Shown: positions 15,911-26,420 of the stretch, piece after piece
Layout: each line of letters starts with the position of its first letter
Position numbering within the stretch: position 1 is the stretch's first letter
Sequence record: NC_054927.1
From: Escherichia phage vB_EcoM_Ozark
Strand: one strand, 5' to 3'
DNA: 64,000 nt
Translations under genes and position numbers: made by a program
The notes under the pieces: model-generated
The model's database searches: none
What the model was told of the DNA's origin: nothing
Seen by the model: only the letters and a program-made list of their open reading frames with translations

Positions 15911-15964
15911 TCCTCATGTTATGTCAGTAAGACTACTATAACACAACACGAGAGACTTGTAAAC
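15911..15964 (-). promoter_or_regulatory. T4-type early promoter plus leader, 54-nt cassette copy A
   Basis: On minus strand: GTTTAC -35, 18-nt spacer, TGnTATAGT -10, leader ending in GAGGAA RBS; 52/54 identical to 31129-31182. Confidence 0.6.
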
Positions 15965-18021
15965 TACATTTTGAACTTTTTAGACATTCCGTTAATGTTA
16001 ACCAAAGAAGCTAAGATTTGAGAAACTTCGTTTTCCTCTTCTTTTGATTCTTCTACAAGGAATTGATTAAATCCAGTCATTGGACGAACTTCACCAGTTT
16101 CCATTAGATGGTCGCCATCATATACTGATTCCTCTAATTGTTCAGAAGGAGGAACGATTGTACCTTCTATTAGATACTTGTTATAAGCAGTTTCTTTCAT
16201 AAAGTACGTACTTACTTTATTAATCTTCAGTAAAATTCCGCGCGGTAGAATAACTTCAGCTTCTGATGGAAATCCTGATAAATGACCTGGAACGATAACT
16301 TTGATTCGCTCAGCTCCTTTAATTACCATACCCACGCTAGTTTCAGCATCTTCATTAGCATATGTAGAATGACTACCCATATGCATCAAATCTTCTGCAT
16401 CAACGGAACCTTCTCCTTCACCAGAAAATACTGCACCGGAATCATCTAGAGCCATATAGTTTTTACCATGCTCACCGAAGATATTTGGTTTAAGCGATGT
16501 GGATACGAAGTTCTTGAAATAGAACATTTTATTTTCAATGTTATGACGCAAAGTTTTAAAGGTAACTTCTTGTCCACGGTAAAGTGTAGTTCCTGGAGGA
16601 AGAACTGATCCTTTGGCAAAGGCAGAATCCAACGTCTCGATGTGCTTAATAGCTCGTTCCATGTATTCTTCACGGGTAGAATCTGGTTTACCCAAAAGGA
16701 ACGAGTTCATTTCAACATATGAATCTGCACAATAATCTTCAATTACATCAGATTCAGCTTGGGTTAGTCCTTTTGGAGTTACTTCGGTGCTTGCGTATTC
16801 ATATGCCTGAGCAGCAGATTCATTAATCAATTTATAAATGCCATTCATTACAAATTGAATAATAGCTGTCTTTTCATCTGGCGTAGCTTTAGAACCTTTA
16901 ACTAAATCATTAATAATTTTCTTAATAACATCAAAGCTATTAGAAATATTAATGTCAGCAAGATCGCTTAAAATTTTATCAGTTTTATAATCAAAGAATT
17001 CTTTATTCTTTAAATATTCTTGAGAACCTTGATATGTTATATCGCTCTGCAACTTGATGGATGGATCACGTAAACGTGCATGGGCTAATGCAATGTGATT
17101 TCGGAAGTTTTCTAGTTCATAATCGCTAGATTTAAAACGAGAAGCACTCCTCATGCCACCGATAGCTCCTTTGCTGAAGTTTGAACCAATCTGAATAACG
17201 CCAGAGTTCATTGGTCCTTCTGCTTTATATACCGGAACTTTAGATTCAAACTCTTGATATTTCTTAGCAGCGAAGCTATCACCCTGAAGTGAAGCATCAA
17301 CAGTAGAATATTGAGCTTGTGCTGCTAATCGACGACTAATTTTAGTTTTCTGAATAACAGCTTGGTCCGTGCGCTTATCATTTTCTAAAGCAATAGAAGC
17401 AGCAACAGCAACAGCTTTAGGAACAGCATTACCTGTTTTAATGTCTACATAAACATCACCAACCTTCGATTCAACTTTTGTGAATAACTCAGTTGAAATA
17501 GGAGGTACACCTGGAATGTCTTCTAAATTGGCATTTTTACGGTAAACCATAATATATGCATATTTCTTATCATAGTCCCAGATTTCCTTTAAAAGAACAT
17601 ATCGACCTGCTCCTTTAGTACGTACTAAACGGTCAGCAATAACTTGCATTTGACGAGCTGCGCCATTTGTTTTACTTTTTAGTACGCGGAATAGGCATGC
17701 GTCGATTTTATACTGTTTCATTGTTTGAAGAGCAGTATCAAAAACAGCATTAATGACGCCAATTGGATTTCCACCCAAGTTTCTAAGCTTAACCAGTGAT
17801 AATTTCTCGTTGACACCTATCATTACGATATGCATCATTTTATCGCCTGGCTTAACGTTTTTATTTGTATCACCGCCAGAGGTGTATGTACAAAATCTAA
17901 ATCCAGGAAGCACACTTTCTTCACCAGCTTGAATAGCAAAAATTTGTGGTATTTTATGCTTAGGATTTAAGTTAACAACCGGCGCCGAAGCGCCGTCAAA
18001 TAATTCTGTAATAAGTTCCAT
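15964..18021 (-). CDS. Alt-family ADP-ribosyltransferase, paralog 1
   Basis: 685 aa; C-terminal ART motifs YRG, STS, EAEVILPRG; N-terminal about 230 aa nearly collinear with the upstream paralog. Confidence 0.8.
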   Translation of the reverse strand: MELITELFDGASAPVVNLNPKHKIPQIFAIQAGEESVLPGFRFCTYTSGGDTNKNVKPGDKMMHIVMIGVNEKLSLVKLRNLGGNPIGVINAVFDTALQTMKQYKIDACLFRVLKSKTNGAARQMQVIADRLVRTKGAGRYVLLKEIWDYDKKYAYIMVYRKNANLEDIPGVPPISTELFTKVESKVGDVYVDIKTGNAVPKAVAVAASIALENDKRTDQAVIQKTKISRRLAAQAQYSTVDASLQGDSFAAKKYQEFESKVPVYKAEGPMNSGVIQIGSNFSKGAIGGMRSASRFKSSDYELENFRNHIALAHARLRDPSIKLQSDITYQGSQEYLKNKEFFDYKTDKILSDLADINISNSFDVIKKIINDLVKGSKATPDEKTAIIQFVMNGIYKLINESAAQAYEYASTEVTPKGLTQAESDVIEDYCADSYVEMNSFLLGKPDSTREEYMERAIKHIETLDSAFAKGSVLPPGTTLYRGQEVTFKTLRHNIENKMFYFKNFVSTSLKPNIFGEHGKNYMALDDSGAVFSGEGEGSVDAEDLMHMGSHSTYANEDAETSVGMVIKGAERIKVIVPGHLSGFPSEAEVILPRGILLKINKVSTYFMKETAYNKYLIEGTIVPPSEQLEESVYDGDHLMETGEVRPMTGFNQFLVEESKEEENEVSQILASLVNINGMSKKFKM

Positions 18022-18024
18022 GAT

Positions 18025-20118
18025 TTATCCTTGAACGAACTTGTAAGGCATGTTTGTAATATCTATGCAAGACGCAATAATTCCAAGAGATGATTCTACT
18101 TTCTGTTTAACATTTGATGAAACAAATGATGCAAAGTCAACTCTATCTTCTATTTCAATACCACCAGTCATTGCAACTACTTCGCCGGTTTCCATTAAAC
18201 GGTCTCCGTCATAGATTACCGATTCGGTGAGTTCTTCTGTGGTCATAACTTCAGCTTGAATGAGTTTTGTATTATTAGACGTGGTTCCGTCATTATTAGA
18301 AGCATCAGTTATTTTATTAACTTTAACCATCAATCCGCGCGGTAGAATAACTTCAGCTTCTGTTGCTATTCCGAGACTTCCTGGATATACAACATTAACT
18401 TTATGAGCTCCATCAATTGCCCATCCTATTTGAACTTTAACGTATTCAGGATTTTCTTTATACGCTCTTATTTCGTTTGGATTAATAGTTATTCCTTCTT
18501 CATTTTTATCAACCGTTAATTCGTTACGAGCTTCTGGTTCTAAAAGACCAATACCAGCATGTGTAATTCCAAAACGCCCAAAAATGATAGGAGTTAAAGA
18601 AGTAGATACAAAATTTCTGAAATAGAACACTTTATTTTTAACTAGCGCTTCGTATATAGGAGCAGTCATACTTTGAGCACGATAAACTGTAATGCCTTCC
18701 GGTATGCGGTCACCATTTTCAAAAGCTGAATCTAAATTATTTATAGCAGATTCAATTTCTTTTTCACTCATTACATCATATCGTTCTGGATTGTAACGAC
18801 CTAAAAGAAGATTATTGATGTCAGTATATCCTGAACCACAATACTCTCTAATGCCGCGCTTTTGTGATGGAGTATATTTAGAACCATCACGGGCAATAGT
18901 AATATCAATCATTGGACCTGCACCAATTCCAGAAAAACTATAAATCATTCTTTTGAGGAATTTAGTTTTTGCTGCGTTCCAGGAATTTTTAGTCATTTCT
19001 TCCCAGACTTCATCTTGCTGCCCTTTACGAGTTTTATTATGTTTATCAAGCCAATTATCTTTATATTCTTCAAAGAATTTATTAATAGCTGCTGCGTATT
19101 TCTCTAAACATTTTATTGAAGTAGTTGGTTCATTTTTTATCGCGTTAAAAATTACATCTTTAATTTTTTCGGAAACTTCATTAACCTCACTTTTTGAAAA
19201 GAATTTATAGTCATAGTGAAGTTCATTCGCAGTTCCTTCGGCAATAATTTTTGCTGCCTTAGTTTTAGAAGCTAATGAATTAATTCCAAGCTTCATTTCT
19301 TCTGCTTCGGGAATTAAAGGAGCGGTAGCGGGTTTATTGAAATTAGCTGCGGTAGATTCATACTTCTGAAATAATTCACTTTCAAATCTAGAAGATTCCA
19401 ATGACTGACTTTGTGCAATTGCTCTACGGGAAATTTTAACTTTAACGATTACAGCTTGATCAGAACGTTTATCATTTTCTTGCGCAATAGATGCTGCAAT
19501 TGCCTCATTTTTAGTTACTTGAGCTCCAGTATCTTTATTGATATAAACATCACCGACCTTCGATTCAACTTTAGTAAAGAGCTCGGTACTAATTTCCGGA
19601 ACCCCTGGAATGTCTTCTAGTGATACATTTTTGCGATGTATAAGAATATATGCATACTTTTTATCGTAATCCCAGAGTTCCTTAAGAAGGACGTATCTGC
19701 CACCTGAACGACTACGGATAAGTCTATCAGCAATAACCTGAATTTGTCGAGCTTGACCAGCGGTTTTAGACTTAAGAATACGAAGCATACAGGCATCAAT
19801 TTTATACTGACGCATTGTTTGCATTGCAACAGTAAAAACTGAATTGATATAATTAATTGGGCTTGAACCAAGACCTTTCAATTTAGCAATTGAACCTTTA
19901 GCAGTTAATGTAAAAGGAACAATATGCATCATTTTATCGCCCATCTTTAAATCGCGATTAGTATCACCTCCAGATGTATAGGTACATAAACGAAAGCCTG
20001 GTTGTTCAATTGCGTCATCAACATGAACTGAAAAAATTTGTGGTATTTTCTTCTTTGGATTTAAGTTTGTAATCGGAAGAGTAGTATCTTCGTCAAATAA
20101 TTCTGTAATGAGTTCCAT
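18025..20118 (-). CDS. alt: Alt-family ADP-ribosyltransferase, paralog 2 (the copy adjacent to gene 30)
   Basis: 697 aa from second ATG (MELITELF); motifs YRAQ, STS, EAEVILPRG; late promoter upstream. Confidence 0.8.
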   Translation of the reverse strand: MELITELFDEDTTLPITNLNPKKKIPQIFSVHVDDAIEQPGFRLCTYTSGGDTNRDLKMGDKMMHIVPFTLTAKGSIAKLKGLGSSPINYINSVFTVAMQTMRQYKIDACMLRILKSKTAGQARQIQVIADRLIRSRSGGRYVLLKELWDYDKKYAYILIHRKNVSLEDIPGVPEISTELFTKVESKVGDVYINKDTGAQVTKNEAIAASIAQENDKRSDQAVIVKVKISRRAIAQSQSLESSRFESELFQKYESTAANFNKPATAPLIPEAEEMKLGINSLASKTKAAKIIAEGTANELHYDYKFFSKSEVNEVSEKIKDVIFNAIKNEPTTSIKCLEKYAAAINKFFEEYKDNWLDKHNKTRKGQQDEVWEEMTKNSWNAAKTKFLKRMIYSFSGIGAGPMIDITIARDGSKYTPSQKRGIREYCGSGYTDINNLLLGRYNPERYDVMSEKEIESAINNLDSAFENGDRIPEGITVYRAQSMTAPIYEALVKNKVFYFRNFVSTSLTPIIFGRFGITHAGIGLLEPEARNELTVDKNEEGITINPNEIRAYKENPEYVKVQIGWAIDGAHKVNVVYPGSLGIATEAEVILPRGLMVKVNKITDASNNDGTTSNNTKLIQAEVMTTEELTESVIYDGDRLMETGEVVAMTGGIEIEDRVDFASFVSSNVKQKVESSLGIIASCIDITNMPYKFVQG

Positions 20119-20141
20119 CATATCCTCTCTAGTGTTTATTC

Positions 20142-20149
20142 TATTTATA
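20142..20149 (-). promoter_or_regulatory. Late promoter TATAAATA upstream of alt
   Basis: TATAAATA on minus strand about 20 nt before the alt start codons. Confidence 0.55.
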
Positions 20150-20170
20150 AAATTAAAGGCCCGAAGGCCT

Positions 20171-20359
20171 TTAATAATCTATTGGTAAGAGAGTACGATA
20201 TATTTCAAACTTTGGACCTTTTTCATAAGCATCAAAAGTTTCTGTGAATTTATTATAAGCATATGCATCTATAAATTCAATCATGATTTGTGATACAGAA
20301 GTAGAAACATCTCCACCTTCTTTTTGAGCCACGACAATTGTTTCTAAGTAAGCTTTCAT
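20171..20359 (-). CDS. Hypothetical 62-aa protein translationally coupled to DNA ligase
   Basis: ATG overlaps the ligase TGA (ATGA); followed by hairpin aaaggcccgaaggccttt. Confidence 0.5.
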   Translation of the reverse strand: MKAYLETIVVAQKEGGDVSTSVSQIMIEFIDAYAYNKFTETFDAYEKGPKFEIYRTLLPIDY

Positions 20360-21819
20360 AAACCAGTTACCTCATGAAAATCACCAAATACATCCTCGAA
20401 TGTATTAGCTTTAGTTTTATCTTCACGCAAACGAATCGCAATTGGAAGAAATAATTTAACGTAATCAGTGCGGCCATCGGATTTTAACCAACCGTTGCAT
20501 TCGCACTCTAGAATTTTTCCAATATAATAATTTTGGTTTTCCATAATGCGAGTACGGTCAAGTTCATGTGATTTTACGCCGGCTTTATCTTTTAAGCCTG
20601 AACCGGCATTTACCTTAATTTTTCCACACTCTGACTCAAGAATAAATCCACCTGCTTTAGTAGGGTCTTTACGGTGAGGATAAATTCCTACAATTTTTAA
20701 ATCAACATCAATTACTTCTTTAAATTTATAGAGATTTTTTGAACGAGCATTTTCCCATAATCCATCGATATTTTTGAGAATAATACCTTCAAGACCTTGG
20801 TCAATATACTTTTTATAAATTACCTTAGCTTCATCTAGGTTATTTACTACTTGGTTTTCAATTAAAATTACTTTATCATATCCTGATGTCATTTGTTCTA
20901 ATTTAGAAAAACGTACATCATATTTTAAACGAAATGCTGGAAGACCGTATATTTCTACCAACGGAACATAATCCCAGACCTGAAACTTCATGCATTGAGC
21001 TTCTTTTTCTGAAATAGTTCCCTTTAAAGATTTATTAGCGATTCCATTAGAAGTAGTACGTGATTCAGCTACTTCAGCAAACTCTTTAGCTTTACTAATT
21101 TCAGGATAAGCATCAAAAAGAAAATCTAGGCCTTCTGGCTCCTTTTTAACTTGCTCATGGTATACCAATTCGCCATCAATTAACACACCTTCTGGATGAA
21201 TCTGGCGGGCTTCAGCGGTCATTTTGATTAACTCTTCCTTAAGAAGATCTAATCCTAGATATTCATTACCAGCTCGTGATAAAAGACGGACATCATCTAA
21301 TTCATCGCCTCGGACTTCAGCAAAACACCTGGCTCCATCTGCTTTTAACTGTGCAAAGGCTGGAAATTTGATATTCTTACTAATGCCCTTTTCATCATAA
21401 GAACTTGCCAGCATTTGAGGTTGTTCAGGAATTAAACCTGGCCAAACTTTGTTTGCAATAGATACTGAAGCACCGCATTCAAGGTCTCGCATCATCACTC
21501 GACGCAAAACTTCAACATCATCCTTTTTACCATCGGTGATATATCCAGTCAATTCCTCAATTGCAGCATTTCCGGTCAATTTCCGAGTAGCTAACGTGAA
21601 TTCAATGAAGTCAAGCATATCGGTAATGGTCAGCATTCCAAAACTCTGGGTAGCAATACCAGGTTTAGGCCATTTCTTGATATAATACTGTAACCCACGA
21701 GAATAAGTTAGACGATATACTCGTTTAAGCAATTCATTATCTTTATTCTTTTCAAGAATTGCTTGCTTCTGCTTAGTTGATCCAATAGATGCTATTTCAT
21801 TCAGAATTTTAAGAATCAT
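20356..21819 (-). CDS. 30: ATP-dependent DNA ligase gp30
   Basis: 487 aa; adenylation motif KADGAR; matches remembered T4 ligase. Confidence 0.92.
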   Translation of the reverse strand: MILKILNEIASIGSTKQKQAILEKNKDNELLKRVYRLTYSRGLQYYIKKWPKPGIATQSFGMLTITDMLDFIEFTLATRKLTGNAAIEELTGYITDGKKDDVEVLRRVMMRDLECGASVSIANKVWPGLIPEQPQMLASSYDEKGISKNIKFPAFAQLKADGARCFAEVRGDELDDVRLLSRAGNEYLGLDLLKEELIKMTAEARQIHPEGVLIDGELVYHEQVKKEPEGLDFLFDAYPEISKAKEFAEVAESRTTSNGIANKSLKGTISEKEAQCMKFQVWDYVPLVEIYGLPAFRLKYDVRFSKLEQMTSGYDKVILIENQVVNNLDEAKVIYKKYIDQGLEGIILKNIDGLWENARSKNLYKFKEVIDVDLKIVGIYPHRKDPTKAGGFILESECGKIKVNAGSGLKDKAGVKSHELDRTRIMENQNYYIGKILECECNGWLKSDGRTDYVKLFLPIAIRLREDKTKANTFEDVFGDFHEVTGL

Positions 21820-22085
21820 TGTTCATCCTTCAGAGTTTGATTTACAGCTCTATTATAAATCAATTCATCATTAAGCTCAGTCAAAGACCTATGATATGTA
21901 GTTCTAACTTTATTTCCTTGCATCCAGTGCTTGACGTAAATGAAACCTTGCTCTACACATTTTTTAAAAATTCGTTCGTCTTTTTGAGCTCGGAATTCTG
22001 GATTGCATCTAAAAAATTGATTTACGTGACCGTAATCACGTGTAGTATTACCTTCATTTTCATAAATAGTGTGAACGACAAACAT
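21816..22085 (-). CDS. Hypothetical protein (position of T4 30.1)
   Basis: 89-aa ORF with protein-like composition; the antisense ORF is low-complexity. Confidence 0.6.
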   Translation of the reverse strand: MFVVHTIYENEGNTTRDYGHVNQFFRCNPEFRAQKDERIFKKCVEQGFIYVKHWMQGNKVRTTYHRSLTELNDELIYNRAVNQTLKDEQ

Positions 22086-22918
22086 TAGAATGCTCCTTGG
22101 AAAATATTATCACCACTAGTAAATCTATTAAAATACCCTGCATCACCAGGCTTAGTATAGTTCCATGTCTGAAACGGATGTGTCTGATATAGATGATATG
22201 GATTATAAGGATTAAATCCAGGAGTTCTCCAGGTAGTGTTCCAACGAAAAGAATCGTTTTTAACCATCTTCTCAATTACATCTTTTATAGCTTTTTCACT
22301 ATCAAAACTTTCTTTATTTTCCTTCGGTGAAAAAAGCTTATTTTCTACATCATTCCATGTATAAACTCGCTGAGCGGTTTTTGGAATATTGTCACGCTCT
22401 CCTCGCGCCATCCAATAAACAGGAACATTTAATATTTCACTCGCATGATCGCAGTGGTGAGCGAGATCGTCAATATAACAAATTACGTTATATTTCTCTT
22501 TTGCCTTTTTGAACAACTCTTCTTTTGAAGAATCATGACCACACATCATTACTTCTGAGAAGGCACCAGGAAAAAGAGCATTCAAATTAAATTGACGATT
22601 CAACAGAGCGTCAATAGAATCACCCAACGCTGTAACAGCTACAAAATTATAATCTTCTTTTAATTTGTTAATTACGCACAGGGCGTCTTTATATGGAGAC
22701 AAATAACGAATAAAATCTGAACGATTGTATTTTTCAATTAACTTGACGCCAAGTTCTTCATCACAATTAAAGAGTTTACCCGGAGAAATAAATTTCTCAT
22801 CTTGGATCATTTTTAAAATATGTTCTAACGGAAGATTATATTTCTGAGCAAAATAAGGAAGGCCTGATTGCCAGCTTAAACATACTCCATCAATATCAGT
22901 TAAAATAGTAGGCTTCAT
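22085..22918 (-). CDS. HAD-superfamily hydrolase-like protein (position of T4 30.2)
   Basis: 277 aa; N-terminal DxDGV (ILTDIDGV), a threonine motif (FVAVTAL) and a DD motif (CYIDDLAHH) as in HAD phosphatases; aromatic-rich C-terminal tail. Confidence 0.6.
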   Translation of the reverse strand: MKPTILTDIDGVCLSWQSGLPYFAQKYNLPLEHILKMIQDEKFISPGKLFNCDEELGVKLIEKYNRSDFIRYLSPYKDALCVINKLKEDYNFVAVTALGDSIDALLNRQFNLNALFPGAFSEVMMCGHDSSKEELFKKAKEKYNVICYIDDLAHHCDHASEILNVPVYWMARGERDNIPKTAQRVYTWNDVENKLFSPKENKESFDSEKAIKDVIEKMVKNDSFRWNTTWRTPGFNPYNPYHLYQTHPFQTWNYTKPGDAGYFNRFTSGDNIFQGAF

Positions 22919-23373
22919 AGAGAGTCTCTTAATAGATTTAACACATCAATAAATTCAGCTTCGGTTAGTATTGTATCATCTTTTGTTAGACCACTAGCCA
23001 TGCTGTGCTTCAAAACTTTTCCTTTCGAGGCTTGTAATGCATCACGAAAGCCCTTGTTTTGGATCGCTGCTTCAAAATATGCATTTGTGTATAATTCTTT
23101 CCACGCCGGGGAGTATCTTGAAAACGGAACTCCAATCCAGAAGAGGGTCCCACGGTCCTGAGCTCTAGCATAAGACCTTCCAGCTTGTTGGGCGGCAAGC
23201 CCGGATAACCCAAATATACGACGTTGTTGTTCAACATTTTTCACCTTACACCCTTGGAGGAATCCTTCAAGACCTCCAAATTGAATACCATCCATAACGA
23301 AAGGCCATTGGGCGAAATTACTTAATGCGCATGATGGCCATCTAAAATTACTTCTAATCTCTAACTCAGACAT
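22915..23373 (-). CDS. YbiA-like / NADAR (DUF1768)-like protein (position of T4 30.3)
   Basis: Track start is TTG at 23379; ATG at 23373. Motif LSNFAQWPFVMDG...EGF resembles the YbiA-family N-terminal signature as remembered. Confidence 0.5.
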   Translation of the reverse strand: MSELEIRSNFRWPSCALSNFAQWPFVMDGIQFGGLEGFLQGCKVKNVEQQRRIFGLSGLAAQQAGRSYARAQDRGTLFWIGVPFSRYSPAWKELYTNAYFEAAIQNKGFRDALQASKGKVLKHSMASGLTKDDTILTEAEFIDVLNLLRDSL

Positions 23374-23572
23374 TTTCAATGCTTATAATTTCAACATCAG
23401 CCCAATGACCATAGCAAGGAAGACGAAATTCAACTGGCCAGTTAGGGTCCTTTTCTAATATAATAGACTTAACTTGTGGTTCTTCGTGTTCATCAGTATA
23501 CGGATTTTTATCTGTTACTTTATATGTGACCTTAATGTACTGAATTCCAAAAATCTTATTAATTATATTCAT
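23366..23572 (-). CDS. Hypothetical protein
   Basis: 68-aa ORF, ATG start, tightly packed. Confidence 0.5.
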   Translation of the reverse strand: MNIINKIFGIQYIKVTYKVTDKNPYTDEHEEPQVKSIILEKDPNWPVEFRLPCYGHWADVEIISIENV

Positions 23573-23766
23573 ACTAATTCCTTTAATCCGTAGATAGGAG
23601 ATAATTCATCACCCATACGAAGGTCTTCATTTCCATCTACCCAGGAAACAATATAAGCCTCTTTTATTTGAATACCACTCCATTTAAATGGAGGTAGAAC
23701 CTTAGAAATTAATCCAGGTATACCAACTCCCTTTAATTCAACGGTTTGACCTAAAAAGAATTTCAT
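23569..23766 (-). CDS. Hypothetical protein
   Basis: 65-aa ORF, ATG overlapping upstream stop. Confidence 0.5.
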   Translation of the reverse strand: MKFFLGQTVELKGVGIPGLISKVLPPFKWSGIQIKEAYIVSWVDGNEDLRMGDELSPIYGLKELV

Positions 23767-24053
23767 TAAAACCTCATCTGAAAACCATGCGATTTAACGT
23801 TACCACCGCCAATATCAGAAATATTAATTTCACGCGCAATTGAAGGGTCAATGTCAATTTCACGATTGAGTTTAGTGATAGCTAAAGTATCGCGCCCATT
23901 TACAGTACGGAACTCTAAAGGACAAACCACATCAACGTAGTTTTTAATCGATTCACTAGTAGGCTGCAAATGAGCAGGAAGGTCTTTAGGCGCCTTTGAG
24001 AAAACCACTTCACAGAAATTTTTGCGGGTATCAAAATAAGTAGTCATAAACAT
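23766..24053 (-). CDS. Hypothetical protein
   Basis: 95-aa ORF. Confidence 0.55.
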   Translation of the reverse strand: MFMTTYFDTRKNFCEVVFSKAPKDLPAHLQPTSESIKNYVDVVCPLEFRTVNGRDTLAITKLNREIDIDPSIAREINISDIGGGNVKSHGFQMRF

Positions 24054-24095
24054 AATATTTTCCTCAGTAAGGGGCCGAAGCCCCTCATTTTATTT

Positions 24096-24473
24096 TTAAA
24101 TATCAAATTCGTTAAGAACTACATCAAAGATTGCTTCCAAGTGCTCAGGTTTAGCTTTGTTACTCAGAATATGACGAATCCAAGTTTTAACTAAGAGTTT
24201 ACGATTAGCACCATTCCAGCAAGGATGAGTCCCTAAATCGCGTTGGCGGAAATCATCATCCAGAGCGATTTTGAAGTTGGAACCTTTCATCGTGATTGAA
24301 ACCGTGATACCGTTTTCAAATCGCATATAAACGTAGTTAGGAGTCATATACTGTTCAATTTCGCATACTGATCCGTTTTGATGTTTCCAGAGGCAAATAG
24401 TATCAATAGAACCTGCAATACCATTAGAAACATATTTACGTTCAAAGTTGATGTAGTTCATTTTATTCTCCAA
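24096..24473 (-). CDS. Hypothetical protein
   Basis: 125-aa ORF preceded by an early-promoter-like region. Confidence 0.55.
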   Translation of the reverse strand: MENKMNYINFERKYVSNGIAGSIDTICLWKHQNGSVCEIEQYMTPNYVYMRFENGITVSITMKGSNFKIALDDDFRQRDLGTHPCWNGANRKLLVKTWIRHILSNKAKPEHLEAIFDVVLNEFDI

Positions 24474-24528
24474 GATGTTTAATTGCGGTACAGGTATATA
24501 ATATCATATCCTGTACCAAAGTAAACAA

Positions 24529-24861
24529 TTATTTTACTACTTTCCAATGCTGCATGTCAAGTTTACCAACTTTTTTCATCTTCTCAATTAAGCGTTCTGC
24601 ACGTTGGCGAGCTGTAACATAATGCCATTCGCCTAATTCATTTTGTTCAATTTTTCCAACGATTACTGTATTCAATTCATAAATCCAACCAGTAAAGAAA
24701 TTATGAACTTGAATTGTAAAGGTGAAATCTGTTCCCATACCTTCTGTTGTTTCTACTTCAATAATATCACCTTCAACTGCCATTAAGAACCACATAGTTT
24801 CATTATATTTACCATTGAAGCATTTAGTTTTAACTGCAGCGTTCAGATTAATCGTTTTCAT
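24529..24861 (-). CDS. Hypothetical protein
   Basis: 110-aa ORF; GTTTAC-type promoter upstream. Confidence 0.55.
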   Translation of the reverse strand: MKTINLNAAVKTKCFNGKYNETMWFLMAVEGDIIEVETTEGMGTDFTFTIQVHNFFTGWIYELNTVIVGKIEQNELGEWHYVTARQRAERLIEKMKKVGKLDMQHWKVVK

Positions 24862-24971
24862 TTTATTCTCCTTTGTTTGTGTAAGATAATACTATCACAA
24901 AGGAACTATACTGTAAACAACTTTATGCAATCTTTGGAAAATAAAAAAGGACTCCCGAAGGAGTCCTCAAC

Positions 24972-25148
24972 TTATGCTTTCTGCTTACCAAAACGAGAAG
25001 CATCATCTCGAAGAACCGCACGTGCTCGGCGCATGATCTTCTCAACAGTTTGATTGATACGAGAGTTCGACCCACGCTTGTAACCAGCGCGTTTAGAATC
25101 ACCAACTTTCTTTTCAACTGCTTTCTTTGCTTTAACTTGTTTTGCCAT
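24972..25148 (-). CDS. Small highly basic protein (position of T4 30.9)
   Basis: 58 aa from internal ATG (MAKQVKAKKAVEKK...), Lys/Arg-rich; alternative upstream start at 25190. Confidence 0.5.
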   Translation of the reverse strand: MAKQVKAKKAVEKKVGDSKRAGYKRGSNSRINQTVEKIMRRARAVLRDDASRFGKQKA

Positions 25149-25344
25149 TATAAATTCTCTTTTAAATGAAAATGCAGGACTTATTGACATTGCCTGCGCA
25201 AGCCCTCAAGGGGAACATAGGTTTTTGGATATTTAACGACCAGGATAACCATAAACCTCGTCAACATTCAAGAGGTACACCGTAAAACAAAGTTCGACGG
25301 CTCCTCGTTTTAACTTCACACTAAGGCAGTGACTCTCCAATAAA

Positions 25345-25593
25345 TTACTTCAGTGTTACCACAAAGTGACGAACTGCTTTTCGTGCGGCAGAAGCCAGAG
25401 GCTTAGCATATTTAAGTTCATCTTTTTCCTGAAGCTCAGCAGCTAATGCAGTTTGAGCAGGATTCAGATGTTTGAAATAACGCAGGATTTCAAGAGCTTC
25501 GGCTTCAACATCAATAGATGCGCCATAGTTTTCGTGACCATTATTCCATGCGTTTCGTTGCAGTTCAAGAGCGTGTTGTAATTGTTTAATCAT
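25345..25593 (-). CDS. rIII: rIII lysis inhibition accessory protein
   Basis: 82 aa, same length and position as T4 rIII. Confidence 0.8.
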   Translation of the reverse strand: MIKQLQHALELQRNAWNNGHENYGASIDVEAEALEILRYFKHLNPAQTALAAELQEKDELKYAKPLASAARKAVRHFVVTLK

Positions 25594-25719
25594 TTAAAAA
25601 TTCTCGTTAGAGATTAAAACTCGGTAGTCACGTTCTTCTGAATTTCATCTTCTTTCGACAGATCTCTCAGTTGTAGACTACCACATAGAATTGAAACTCA
25701 ATTCATATTATTATTTATA

Positions 25720-26055
25720 TCACTTATAAAGACACGGAATAGCTTTATAGTGACAGGTAACAAATTTTTGTTTAATTTCTTTTGGCTGCTTAAGACCTAG
25801 AGCTACAAAAGGATGCGGAACGTTTCGAATTTGACCAACTGGAAGAGAAGTCAAATCACCAACTTCGCAGAAACCTTCAGGAACATCAGGACCGACAGAG
25901 TGAACTACACACAGTTCAGGAACTTCACCTTGGACACGTTTACCAATAATAAGTCCTGATTCTGTAACTTCTTCATCACCGGCTTGCGCAGGTTCAGAAA
26001 CTAAAATAACATATTCACCGACAGCACGAATTGGTAGCTGTTGTACTTCAGACAT
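25720..26055 (-). CDS. 31: Co-chaperonin gp31 (GroES analogue)
   Basis: 111 aa; matches remembered T4 gp31. Confidence 0.9.
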
Positions 26056-26111
26056 CGTTTTTCCTTTTTGTTAACAGATGAATTAATAATAACAAATAAT
26101 TCTTAAAGCAT

Positions 26112-26420
26112 TTATTTACCAATAAATTGAAGCAAATGCTCAACTTTCATGCCATTAACGGAAATCAATTTGTCAATAGAAAAACCTCGCCATGCACCGA
26201 GTTCAACATCAAATATCGGAATCATATCAGTAGATTCTTTCCGAGTAGATTCAGTCAATTTACCGGTTTGCATAGTTGGCATAAAGTCAGCATCACGGGT
26301 GCCTTTCATAGTACGAATAGTACCATCAGACTTTTCAAAAACCACGTTTGAAATACCCATGGACAATTTAGTTTTCAAAATTTCACGAATTGCTACTTTC
26401 TGTTCAGTTGTCAGTTTCAT
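26112..26420 (-). CDS. Hypothetical protein (position of T4 31.1)
   Basis: 102-aa ORF. Confidence 0.55.
   Translation of the reverse strand: MKLTTEQKVAIREILKTKLSMGISNVVFEKSDGTIRTMKGTRDADFMPTMQTGKLTESTRKESTDMIPIFDVELGAWRGFSIDKLISVNGMKVEHLLQFIGK

Follow-up and report, generated by a model that had tools for sequence, protein, structure and literature searches.

Overlapping genes 30.3 (adfN) and 30.2 of Escherichia phage vB_EcoM_Ozark: a predicted NADAR-type hydrolase and a putative HAD phosphatase that are probably independent

The stretch of 64,000 nucleotides of Escherichia phage vB_EcoM_Ozark analysed here (NC_054927.1; hereafter the window) contains on its minus strand two overlapping genes, 30.3 and 30.2, which raise the question of whether a NADAR-type hydrolase and a HAD-type phosphatase act together in ADP-ribose metabolism or are neighbours of independent function. 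An earlier note, made from the sequence alone, had described the pair as a YbiA/NADAR-like gene overlapping a HAD-phosphatase-like one, a few kb from two ADP-ribosyltransferase (ART) genes, and had speculated that together they form a module handling ADP-ribose or NAD-derived nucleotides. Sequence comparison and gene order identify the window as a Tequatrovirus (T4-like) genome, and both open reading frames (ORFs) are present with the coordinates, the overlap and the motifs that had been quoted, to which an invariant lysine of gp30.2, K132, is to be added. The features of the pair are the following:

22915 to 23373, minus strand: gene 30.3 (adfN), 152 residues from an ATG; predicted phage-type NADAR DNA ADP-ribosylglycohydrolase, full length.
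22085 to 22918, minus strand: gene 30.2, 277 residues plus stop; predicted HAD hydrolase domain followed by a variable tail; phrog_420.
22915 to 22918, minus strand: ATGA overlap, 4 nucleotides common to the 30.3 stop and the 30.2 start (sequence and codons checked).

We consider it quite probable that these are two independent accessory genes, one for AdfN and one for a capped HAD phosphomonoesterase, lying head-to-tail in the T4 early-region cluster. Overall, the locus is ordinary and largely already explained. Indeed, the role of the NADAR half, an orphan antitoxin-like phage enzyme that undoes DarTG1 DNA ADP-ribosylation, was published in 2024–2025, so that in this respect the Ozark window adds only another intact allele. 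gp30.2 is a putative phosphatase widely conserved in T4-like phages, with intact catalytic motifs, and is part of the T4 'dark matter'.

The identity of gp30.3 is apparent from its T4 counterpart (NP_049816), with which it shares its length and 150 of 152 residues (99%), the differences being I80L and M125I. The ORF list places the start of 30.3 at a TTG (23379); a start at the ATG (23373) agrees with the way T4 is annotated and with the residue numbers used in the literature (E36, K43). When used as a single sequence against Pfam, gp30.3 matches PF08010 (Phage_30_3) over its full length (234.3 bits for a cutoff of 36, E-value 4.5e-70), this being its sole match, and the NADAR family PF08719 is not reached. 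PHROGs annotates both gp30.3 and gp30.2 as 'unknown function', and phmmer searches of the PDB with the two single sequences returned chance matches only. Searches with single sequences were thus of little help, and the analysis had to turn to profiles and structure models. Weak matches to PF08719 occur in 11 of 67 diverse gp30.3 relatives, and the profile of these 67 sequences has E. coli YbiA as its top PDB match (E-value 0.0012), across the SNF...E...K motif. The AlphaFold2 model of gp30.3 has a predicted local distance difference test (pLDDT) score of 94.8 and a predicted template modelling score (pTM) of 0.89, and a Foldseek search with it gave only three PDB matches at a probability of at least 0.99, all of them NADARs (template modelling, TM, scores of 0.56–0.68): YbiA (2b3w; E-value 5.7e-5, TM 0.68), the DarT1-associated NADAR of Geobacter lovleyi (8bat) and the NADAR of P. 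nicotianae (8bau), the latter being a Phytophthora enzyme bound to ADP-ribose. The comparison of a model with YbiA and NADAR structures, which the earlier note had proposed, thus agrees with its NADAR assignment; as to the profile search proposed along with it, family profiles recover both the NADAR and the HAD relationships, and single-sequence Pfam searches reach neither PF08719 nor HAD.

The motif residues of gp30.3 are S18-N19-F20-A-Q-W23-P24, D28-G29 and E36, and the elements that matter for the discussion below are all intact:

23266 to 23268, minus strand: codon GAA of the predicted catalytic Glu36, invariant in 67 family members.
23245 to 23247, minus strand: codon AAG of the predicted catalytic Lys43, at least 90% conserved in the family.
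23005 to 23007, minus strand: codon CAC of His123, beside the last beta-strand, the residue that marks the gp30.3 subfamily of phage NADARs.
22918 to 22962, minus strand: C-terminal helix, residues 138–152, intact (helix at 138–151 in the model).

His123, which follows the last strand of the model (residues 120–122), is invariant in one alignment of the gp30.3 family and at least 90% conserved in another. With the YbiA profile match, the NADAR-only structural matches and E36, K43 and H123 in place, gp30.3 is, as judged by sequence and model, a NADAR-superfamily hydrolase of the phage gp30.3/AdfN subfamily.

The function of this protein has been established in T4, whose gp30.3 was named AdfN, a DNA ADP-ribosylglycohydrolase countering DarTG1 (Johannesman et al., Nat Commun 2025, PMC11825919). 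Genetic analysis in T4 indicates that AdfN is necessary and sufficient for T-even phages to resist the DarTG1 toxin-antitoxin defence (PMC11825919), and purified T4 gp30.3 alone strips ADP-ribose from guanine in DNA in vitro (Toxins 2024, PMC11125620), thymidine-ADP-ribose not being reversed (PMC11125620). T4 AdfN is impaired by E36A, by K43A and by loss of the C-terminal helix; in RB69, which is DarTG1-sensitive, a frameshift removes this helix, and a truncated T4 AdfN is less active (PMC11825919). The last-strand residue is His in phage NADARs, Glu in YbiA and Asp in DarG1-type NADARs (PMC11125620). Considering the 99% identity to the T4 protein, Ozark AdfN would be expected to remove ADP-ribose from guanine and to protect against DarTG1. 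Glu36, Lys43 and His123 would bind ADP-ribose and cleave its N-glycosidic bond to guanine in DarT1-modified phage DNA, and this removal, transferring the T4 results to Ozark, would restore replication on DarTG1-carrying hosts. The suggestion that the NADAR counters a host ADP-ribosylation defence is in this way borne out, in that the 99%-identical T4 AdfN reverses guanine ADP-ribosylation by DarT1. Two aspects of the T4 work relate directly to its neighbour: in E. coli that is not infected, T4 AdfN fails to relieve the toxicity of DarT1 (PMC11825919, PMC11125620), and it is fully active only within T-even infections, which led Johannesman et al. to suspect an additional T-even protein (PMC11825919). 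gp30.2, encoded immediately downstream, would be the first protein to suspect as the T-even-specific factor apparently required by AdfN; synteny and the published T4 data argue against it, as discussed below.

gp30.2 is identical to its T4 counterpart (NP_049815) at 264 of 278 positions (95%), and 11 of the 14 differences sit in the C-terminal tail, a region which is absent or different in many homologues. No Pfam or NCBIfam family was matched by the gp30.2 query, a few of its relatives giving weak and generic NCBIfam matches to HAD-IA and HAD type II, and a literature search for gp30.2 function found nothing, the NARP3 paper containing no relevant link. The AlphaFold2 model has pLDDT values above 90 across most of residues 1–195 and displays a Rossmann-like HAD core fold, with helices inserted after strand 1 (residues about 14–72) that correspond to a C1 cap. 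The tail has pLDDT values of 43–69, except for one helix at 207–220. The predicted elements are:

22331 to 22918, minus strand: HAD domain with inserted helical C1 cap, residues 1–196.
22883 to 22897, minus strand: HAD motif I, D8-I-D10-G-V12, with the nucleophile Asp and the Asp at position +2 (codons checked).
22631 to 22633, minus strand: HAD motif II, Thr96, at least 90% conserved, at the end of the strand 91–96.
22523 to 22525, minus strand: HAD motif III, Lys132, invariant.
22466 to 22471, minus strand: HAD motif IV, Asp150-Asp151, predicted Mg2+ ligands, at least 90% conserved.
22088 to 22330, minus strand: C-terminal tail, residues 197–277, variable and mostly disordered, rich in aromatics, Asn and Pro.

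Among 54 aligned relatives, whose identity goes down to 34% and which come from phages of Escherichia, Klebsiella, Erwinia, Yersinia, Serratia, Pseudomonas, Shewanella, Acinetobacter and others, D8, D10, G11 and K132 are invariant and T96 and D150-D151 near-invariant. Motif I is kept in 99 of 101 homologues and motif IV in 95, a retention which indicates that the active site is under selection. An Asp at nucleophile+2 is typical of HAD phosphatases and phosphomutases. Motifs I to IV, the fold of the model and the profile matches all agree with the HAD-like character that had been proposed, and by these sequence and model data gp30.2 is a C1-capped HAD-superfamily hydrolase with all four catalytic motifs.

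As to which hydrolase, the top PDB match of the gp30.2 profile is cdN (2jao, E-value 0.034), Pfam NT5C (PF06941) is weakly matched by 8 of the 54 relatives (best E-value 1.2e-4), and 3bwv, from S. epidermidis, has the highest identity and coverage. The Phe of the cdN segment 'DMDGVLADF', which we take to be the base-stacking residue, is matched in the alignment by the invariant W16 of gp30.2. Sequence comparison thus leans weakly towards the 5'(3')-deoxyribonucleotidases as closest relatives; since gp30.2 falls below the threshold of the NT5C model, it is described here as NT5C-like and is not filed as a member. The intact motifs suggest Mg2+-dependent phosphoryl transfer, and gp30.2 would act as a phosphomonoesterase with Asp8 as nucleophile and Asp10 as general acid/base, Thr96 and Lys132 binding the phosphate and Asp150/Asp151 ligating the metal. 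The active site would be covered by the helical C1 cap, a sign that the substrate is a small molecule; the likeliest is a nucleotide or some other small phosphoester, as for the 5'(3')-deoxyribonucleotidases.

A different view of gp30.2, which we regard as very improbable, is that of a catalytically dead HAD-fold protein that serves in binding or as a scaffold through its C-terminal tail. The tail is indeed long, variable and disordered, it carries a short motif, GTGIEYLxxQPT, in 15 of 101 homologues, and the T4 data on essentiality, on DarTG1 hosts and on M9 medium revealed no phenotype of 30.2; against this, the four catalytic motifs stay invariant or nearly so down to 34% identity, and the tail is wholly absent from many homologues. 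The T4 version of the tail motif reads GGIEYLYNRPT, and in Ozark (residues about 254–277; 22088 to 22160, minus strand) it is degenerate, GDAGY-FNRFT, with a deletion of one residue. From these sequences, GTGIEYLxxQPT may serve as a short linear motif for interactions, one which the Ozark allele would have lost.

Having two plausible enzymes, we have analysed whether their genes travel together. Neighbours within 6 kb were recorded for 80 IMG/VR loci with a gp30.2 relative and, in the reverse direction, for the best 80 loci with a gp30.3-type NADAR, the counts covering loci. The most conserved neighbour of gp30.2 is DNA ligase, adjacent in 75 of the 80 loci (72 downstream, 3 upstream), and Alt is near in 56. 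This raises the alternative that gp30.2 is tied to the adjacent ligase, either as a 3'-phosphatase acting on DNA ends, which would ready nicks for ligation in the manner of the HAD domain of T4 polynucleotide kinase/phosphatase, or as a remover of a ligation by-product such as AMP or pyrophosphate; with a capped active site that suggests a small molecule as substrate and a weak resemblance to deoxyribonucleotidases, we find this alternative quite doubtful. gp30.3 lies within 6 kb of gp30.2 in 37 of the 80 gp30.2 loci. Conversely, gp30.2 is within 6 kb in 22 of the 80 NADAR loci, all of which also carry ligase, and 58 have no gp30.2 nearby, and 11 T4-like genomes carry both genes at a distance of 54–69 kb. 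In one of these 11 genomes (L118), the small-ORF neighbours of the NADAR match no phosphatase or ADP-ribose-related domain.

These figures bear on the module that the earlier note had put forward. Spelled out here as a sequence of reactions, the NADAR would liberate either ADP-ribose or a phosphorylated form of it, and this product, or a downstream one such as ribose-5-phosphate or AMP, would be dephosphorylated by the HAD enzyme; a wider form of this reading might involve the nearby Alt transferases, countering host defences or tuning the ADP-ribosylation carried out by the phage itself. Transposon data for T4 (HIDEN-SEQ, bioRxiv 10.1101/2025.11.20.689424) are more direct. Gene 30.2 is non-essential, with 72 of 72 TA sites disrupted (10.1101/2025.11.20.689424). 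On DarTG1 hosts, insertions in 30.3 fall from a mean of 261 to 0.7 (log2 fold change −7.25, adjusted p 0; Extended Data Table 6), whereas no effect is seen for 30.2 (−0.12, adjusted p 1) or for alt (−0.01), and 30.2 is also neutral between LB and M9 (−0.10) (10.1101/2025.11.20.689424). The only hit on DarTG2 is tk.4, and on DarTG1 hosts 30.4 is mildly depleted (log2 fold change −1.79, adjusted p 0.014) (10.1101/2025.11.20.689424). The simplest account of the latter is polarity or translational coupling acting on 30.3, which 30.4 overlaps, although 30.4 itself may contribute to the DarTG1 phenotype. From these published T4 data, gp30.2 is not needed for the anti-DarTG1 function of AdfN and is dispensable for T4 in every condition checked; the neutrality of 30.2 insertions on DarTG1 hosts further implies that gp30.2 is not the suspected T-even partner, unless redundant. 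In addition, AdfN works alone in vitro. A dedicated module of NADAR and HAD enzyme, with or without Alt, is therefore not supported, as the adjacency is not conserved and the loss-of-function phenotype is not shared, and we consider the coupled activity described above unlikely.

Some observations do weigh against the independence of the two genes. Whenever they are close, 30.3 is always on the same strand as and upstream of 30.2, even in distant T4-like phages whose proteins are only about 40% identical. HIDEN-SEQ is a preprint, concerns T4 and not Ozark, and is blind to redundant functions. The full activity of AdfN needs a T-even infection, so that a T-even partner may exist, and T4-like NADARs are early genes expressed alongside ARTs (Iyer et al. 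2022, PMC9503650), which would suit a joint role. Lastly, the two domains are found fused in a few bacterial proteins. The gp30.3 family comprises 1451 clusters at 50% identity, of which 147 representatives were examined (P0123–P0269), and 50 of these have extra regions of at least 80 residues. In three, P0135, P0140 and P0247, all from one sub-lineage, an NT5C-type HAD domain lies C-terminal to the NADAR, the domain order being that of the T4 genes, 30.3 then 30.2. Fusions of this kind are encoded in a small lineage of gut Bacteroidales, including Hallella faecis and Prevotellamassilia timonensis. The HAD half of P0135 matches Pfam NT5C at 1.6e-16, its motif I context, DMDNVLVDFQSGL, resembles that of gp30.2, DIDGVCLSWQSGL, and hhalign aligns the gp30.2 family with the fused HAD domain at a probability of 64% (E-value 6.5e-5, 66 aligned columns). 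The genes around P0135 encode ADP_ribosyl_GH, NADAR, RtcB and phosphatase proteins, a setting which, together with the PTP-NADK-type phosphatase near the Prevotellamassilia fusion, speaks for the coupled reading.

The weight of these fusions is limited in several respects. They make up 3 of 147 representatives in a single sub-lineage, the catalytic motifs are degenerate in two of them, and near-identical NADAR-only and HAD-only genes exist in other genomes with the partner not nearby. When the gp30.2 family hidden Markov model was run against the extensions of the 147 proteins, it returned one weak match, P0135 (E-value 0.0027). The rare NADAR-HAD fusion is in our view a weak residual hint of a link between 30.3 and 30.2, intriguing but thin. 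Taken with the recurrent order of 30.3 before 30.2, it is nevertheless the reason for considering that gp30.2 could be a phosphatase for a phosphorylated small molecule derived from ADP-ribose or NAD, acting downstream of or parallel to NADAR-type hydrolases. To this we give an outside chance, and the same slim prospect applies to its candidate substrates, namely ADP-ribose phosphate, a nucleotide signal or breakdown products of the released ADP-ribose; if true, T4-like phages would gain from such an enzyme a second layer of enzymatic protection, directed at some defence based on ADP-ribose or NAD.

Other fusion partners in the gp30.3 family include BspA-type leucine-rich repeats, ASCH, GDSL lipase, Lgt, ZapA and tandem NADAR repeats. 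The gp30.3 NADAR subfamily is thus large and often fused to unrelated domains, and it is not confined to T4-like phages. With respect to the NADAR-HAD proteins themselves, the fusion gene of one contig (Logan ERR9710099; L163, 6001 to 6993) is surrounded by genes for DUF1810, an ADP-ribosylglycohydrolase, a canonical NADAR, RtcB, a PTP-NADK-like phosphatase and a low-molecular-weight phosphatase, and that of Prevotellamassilia timonensis (L165, 6929 to 7936) adjoins a PTP-NADK/Tc-R-P-type phosphatase. These Bacteroidales loci may represent an uncharacterised island linked to ADP-ribose or to RNA repair.

The overlap of the two genes, which could also be taken in favour of a coupled function, is put into perspective by the packing of the surrounding genes, which keep the T4 order (alt, alt.1, 30, 30.1, 30.2, 30.3, 30.4 and onward). 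Of the 690 phage records matched by the 1.8-kb region, Escherichia phage teqdroes comes first (97.8%). The neighbouring features are:

23366 to 23572, minus strand: gene 30.4, overlapping the start of 30.3 by 8 nucleotides.
21816 to 22085, minus strand: gene 30.1 (DUF3045; Pfam PF11243, 2.9e-64), sharing 1 nucleotide with the stop of 30.2 at the junction TAATG.
20356 to 21819, minus strand: gene 30, ATP-dependent DNA ligase, with position and length (487 residues) as T4 gene 30.
18025 to 20121, minus strand: alt, orthologue of the Alt ADP-ribosyltransferase, 70% identical to T4 Alt.
15964 to 18021, minus strand: second alt paralogue, full length, 685 residues, 41% identical to the neighbouring Alt and to T4 Alt.

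Genes 30.1 and 30 overlap by 4 nucleotides, and stop/start overlaps are common along the whole cluster, hence not special to the 30.3/30.2 pair. The string from 30.7 through 30.3, 30.2 and 30.1 to 30 is tightly packed and apparently co-transcribed, and within it the 4-nucleotide overlap would be ordinary T4 gene packing, possibly with translational coupling. A scan of 20000–26200 found 24 promoter-like signals for 21.7 expected from shuffled sequence, and 3 terminator-like ones for 3.8; as the signals are no richer than in shuffled sequence, no transcript boundaries were drawn from the scan. The best sigma-70-like match (24531 to 24560, minus strand) consists of TTGACA, an 18-nucleotide spacer and TAAAAT (11/12) and lies a short way upstream of the 30.7 orthologue. 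Between the 30.9 and 30.8 orthologues, at 24947 to 24968 (minus strand), there is a GC-rich hairpin with a T-run after it. As bounds of an early transcript carrying 30.7 to 30, these two sites are plausible, within a scan that is overall no richer than shuffled sequence. The ORF 30.3' (75 residues), annotated in T4 in another frame within 30.3, is also open here (23010 to 23237, minus strand). Its coding conservation across related loci is unconvincing, as it is open only in close relatives, its start shifts and its peptide drifts, and it is absent from divergent AdfN genes.

The two full-length Alt paralogues, which are the ADP-ribosyltransferase genes that had been placed a few kb away, indeed lie at 2–6 kb from 30.2/30.3, beyond the ligase. 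At the position of the second one T4 has only the decayed fragments alt.-1 and alt.-2, from which it follows that Ozark keeps an ancestral tandem duplication intact. The Alt at 18025–20121 is a mosaic with respect to T4 Alt: the first ~245 and the last ~100 residues are near-identical, and the centre, including the surroundings of the transferase core, is strongly diverged, a pattern suggestive of recombination or of selection for diversity in target recognition. Alt modifies arginine, and we found in the literature no test of AdfN on arginine-ADP-ribose, the product of Alt.

It is instructive to set both proteins against known systems. With the NT5C family (cdN and mdN, 2jao and 2i7d; S. epidermidis, 3bwv), gp30.2 shares 16–21% identity, and it differs in having an extra tail of 81 residues. 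A possible functional analogue is Dmp of phage T5, a deoxynucleoside-5'-monophosphatase and thus a phage nucleotide phosphatase, whose motif I is of the HAD type (WDLDGT). It was discarded as a gp30.2 homologue, since the hhalign probability is 2% over motif I only, and T5 Dmp matches no Pfam family. The HAD-type 3'-phosphatase domain of the T4 polynucleotide kinase/phosphatase, PseT, has the same superfamily motif I (DVDGT, compared to DIDGV in gp30.2) and is encoded in the same region of the T4 genome; it too was rejected as a relative, at an hhalign probability of 13% over 26 columns, and gp30.2 has a cap. In the Bacteroidales NADAR-NT5C fusions the two activities would reside in one polypeptide, of bacterial origin, and the kinship of their HAD half with gp30.2 is no more than distant.

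For gp30.3 the correspondences are closer. The DarG1-type NADARs (8bat; E. coli C7 NADAR) and YbiA (2b3w) have the same fold and the same Glu-x6-Lys pair (E88/K95 in C7), and they share with AdfN, according to the T4 data, the reaction on guanine-ADP-ribose DNA. gp30.3 differs from them in being only 15–18% identical, in having His at the last strand in place of Asp (DarG1-type) or Glu (YbiA), and in that its gene is an orphan, with no DarT toxin as partner. Finally, with T4 AdfN it shares E36, K43, H123, the C-terminal helix and the position of its gene between 30.4 and 30.2, the two substitutions that separate the proteins both being conservative.

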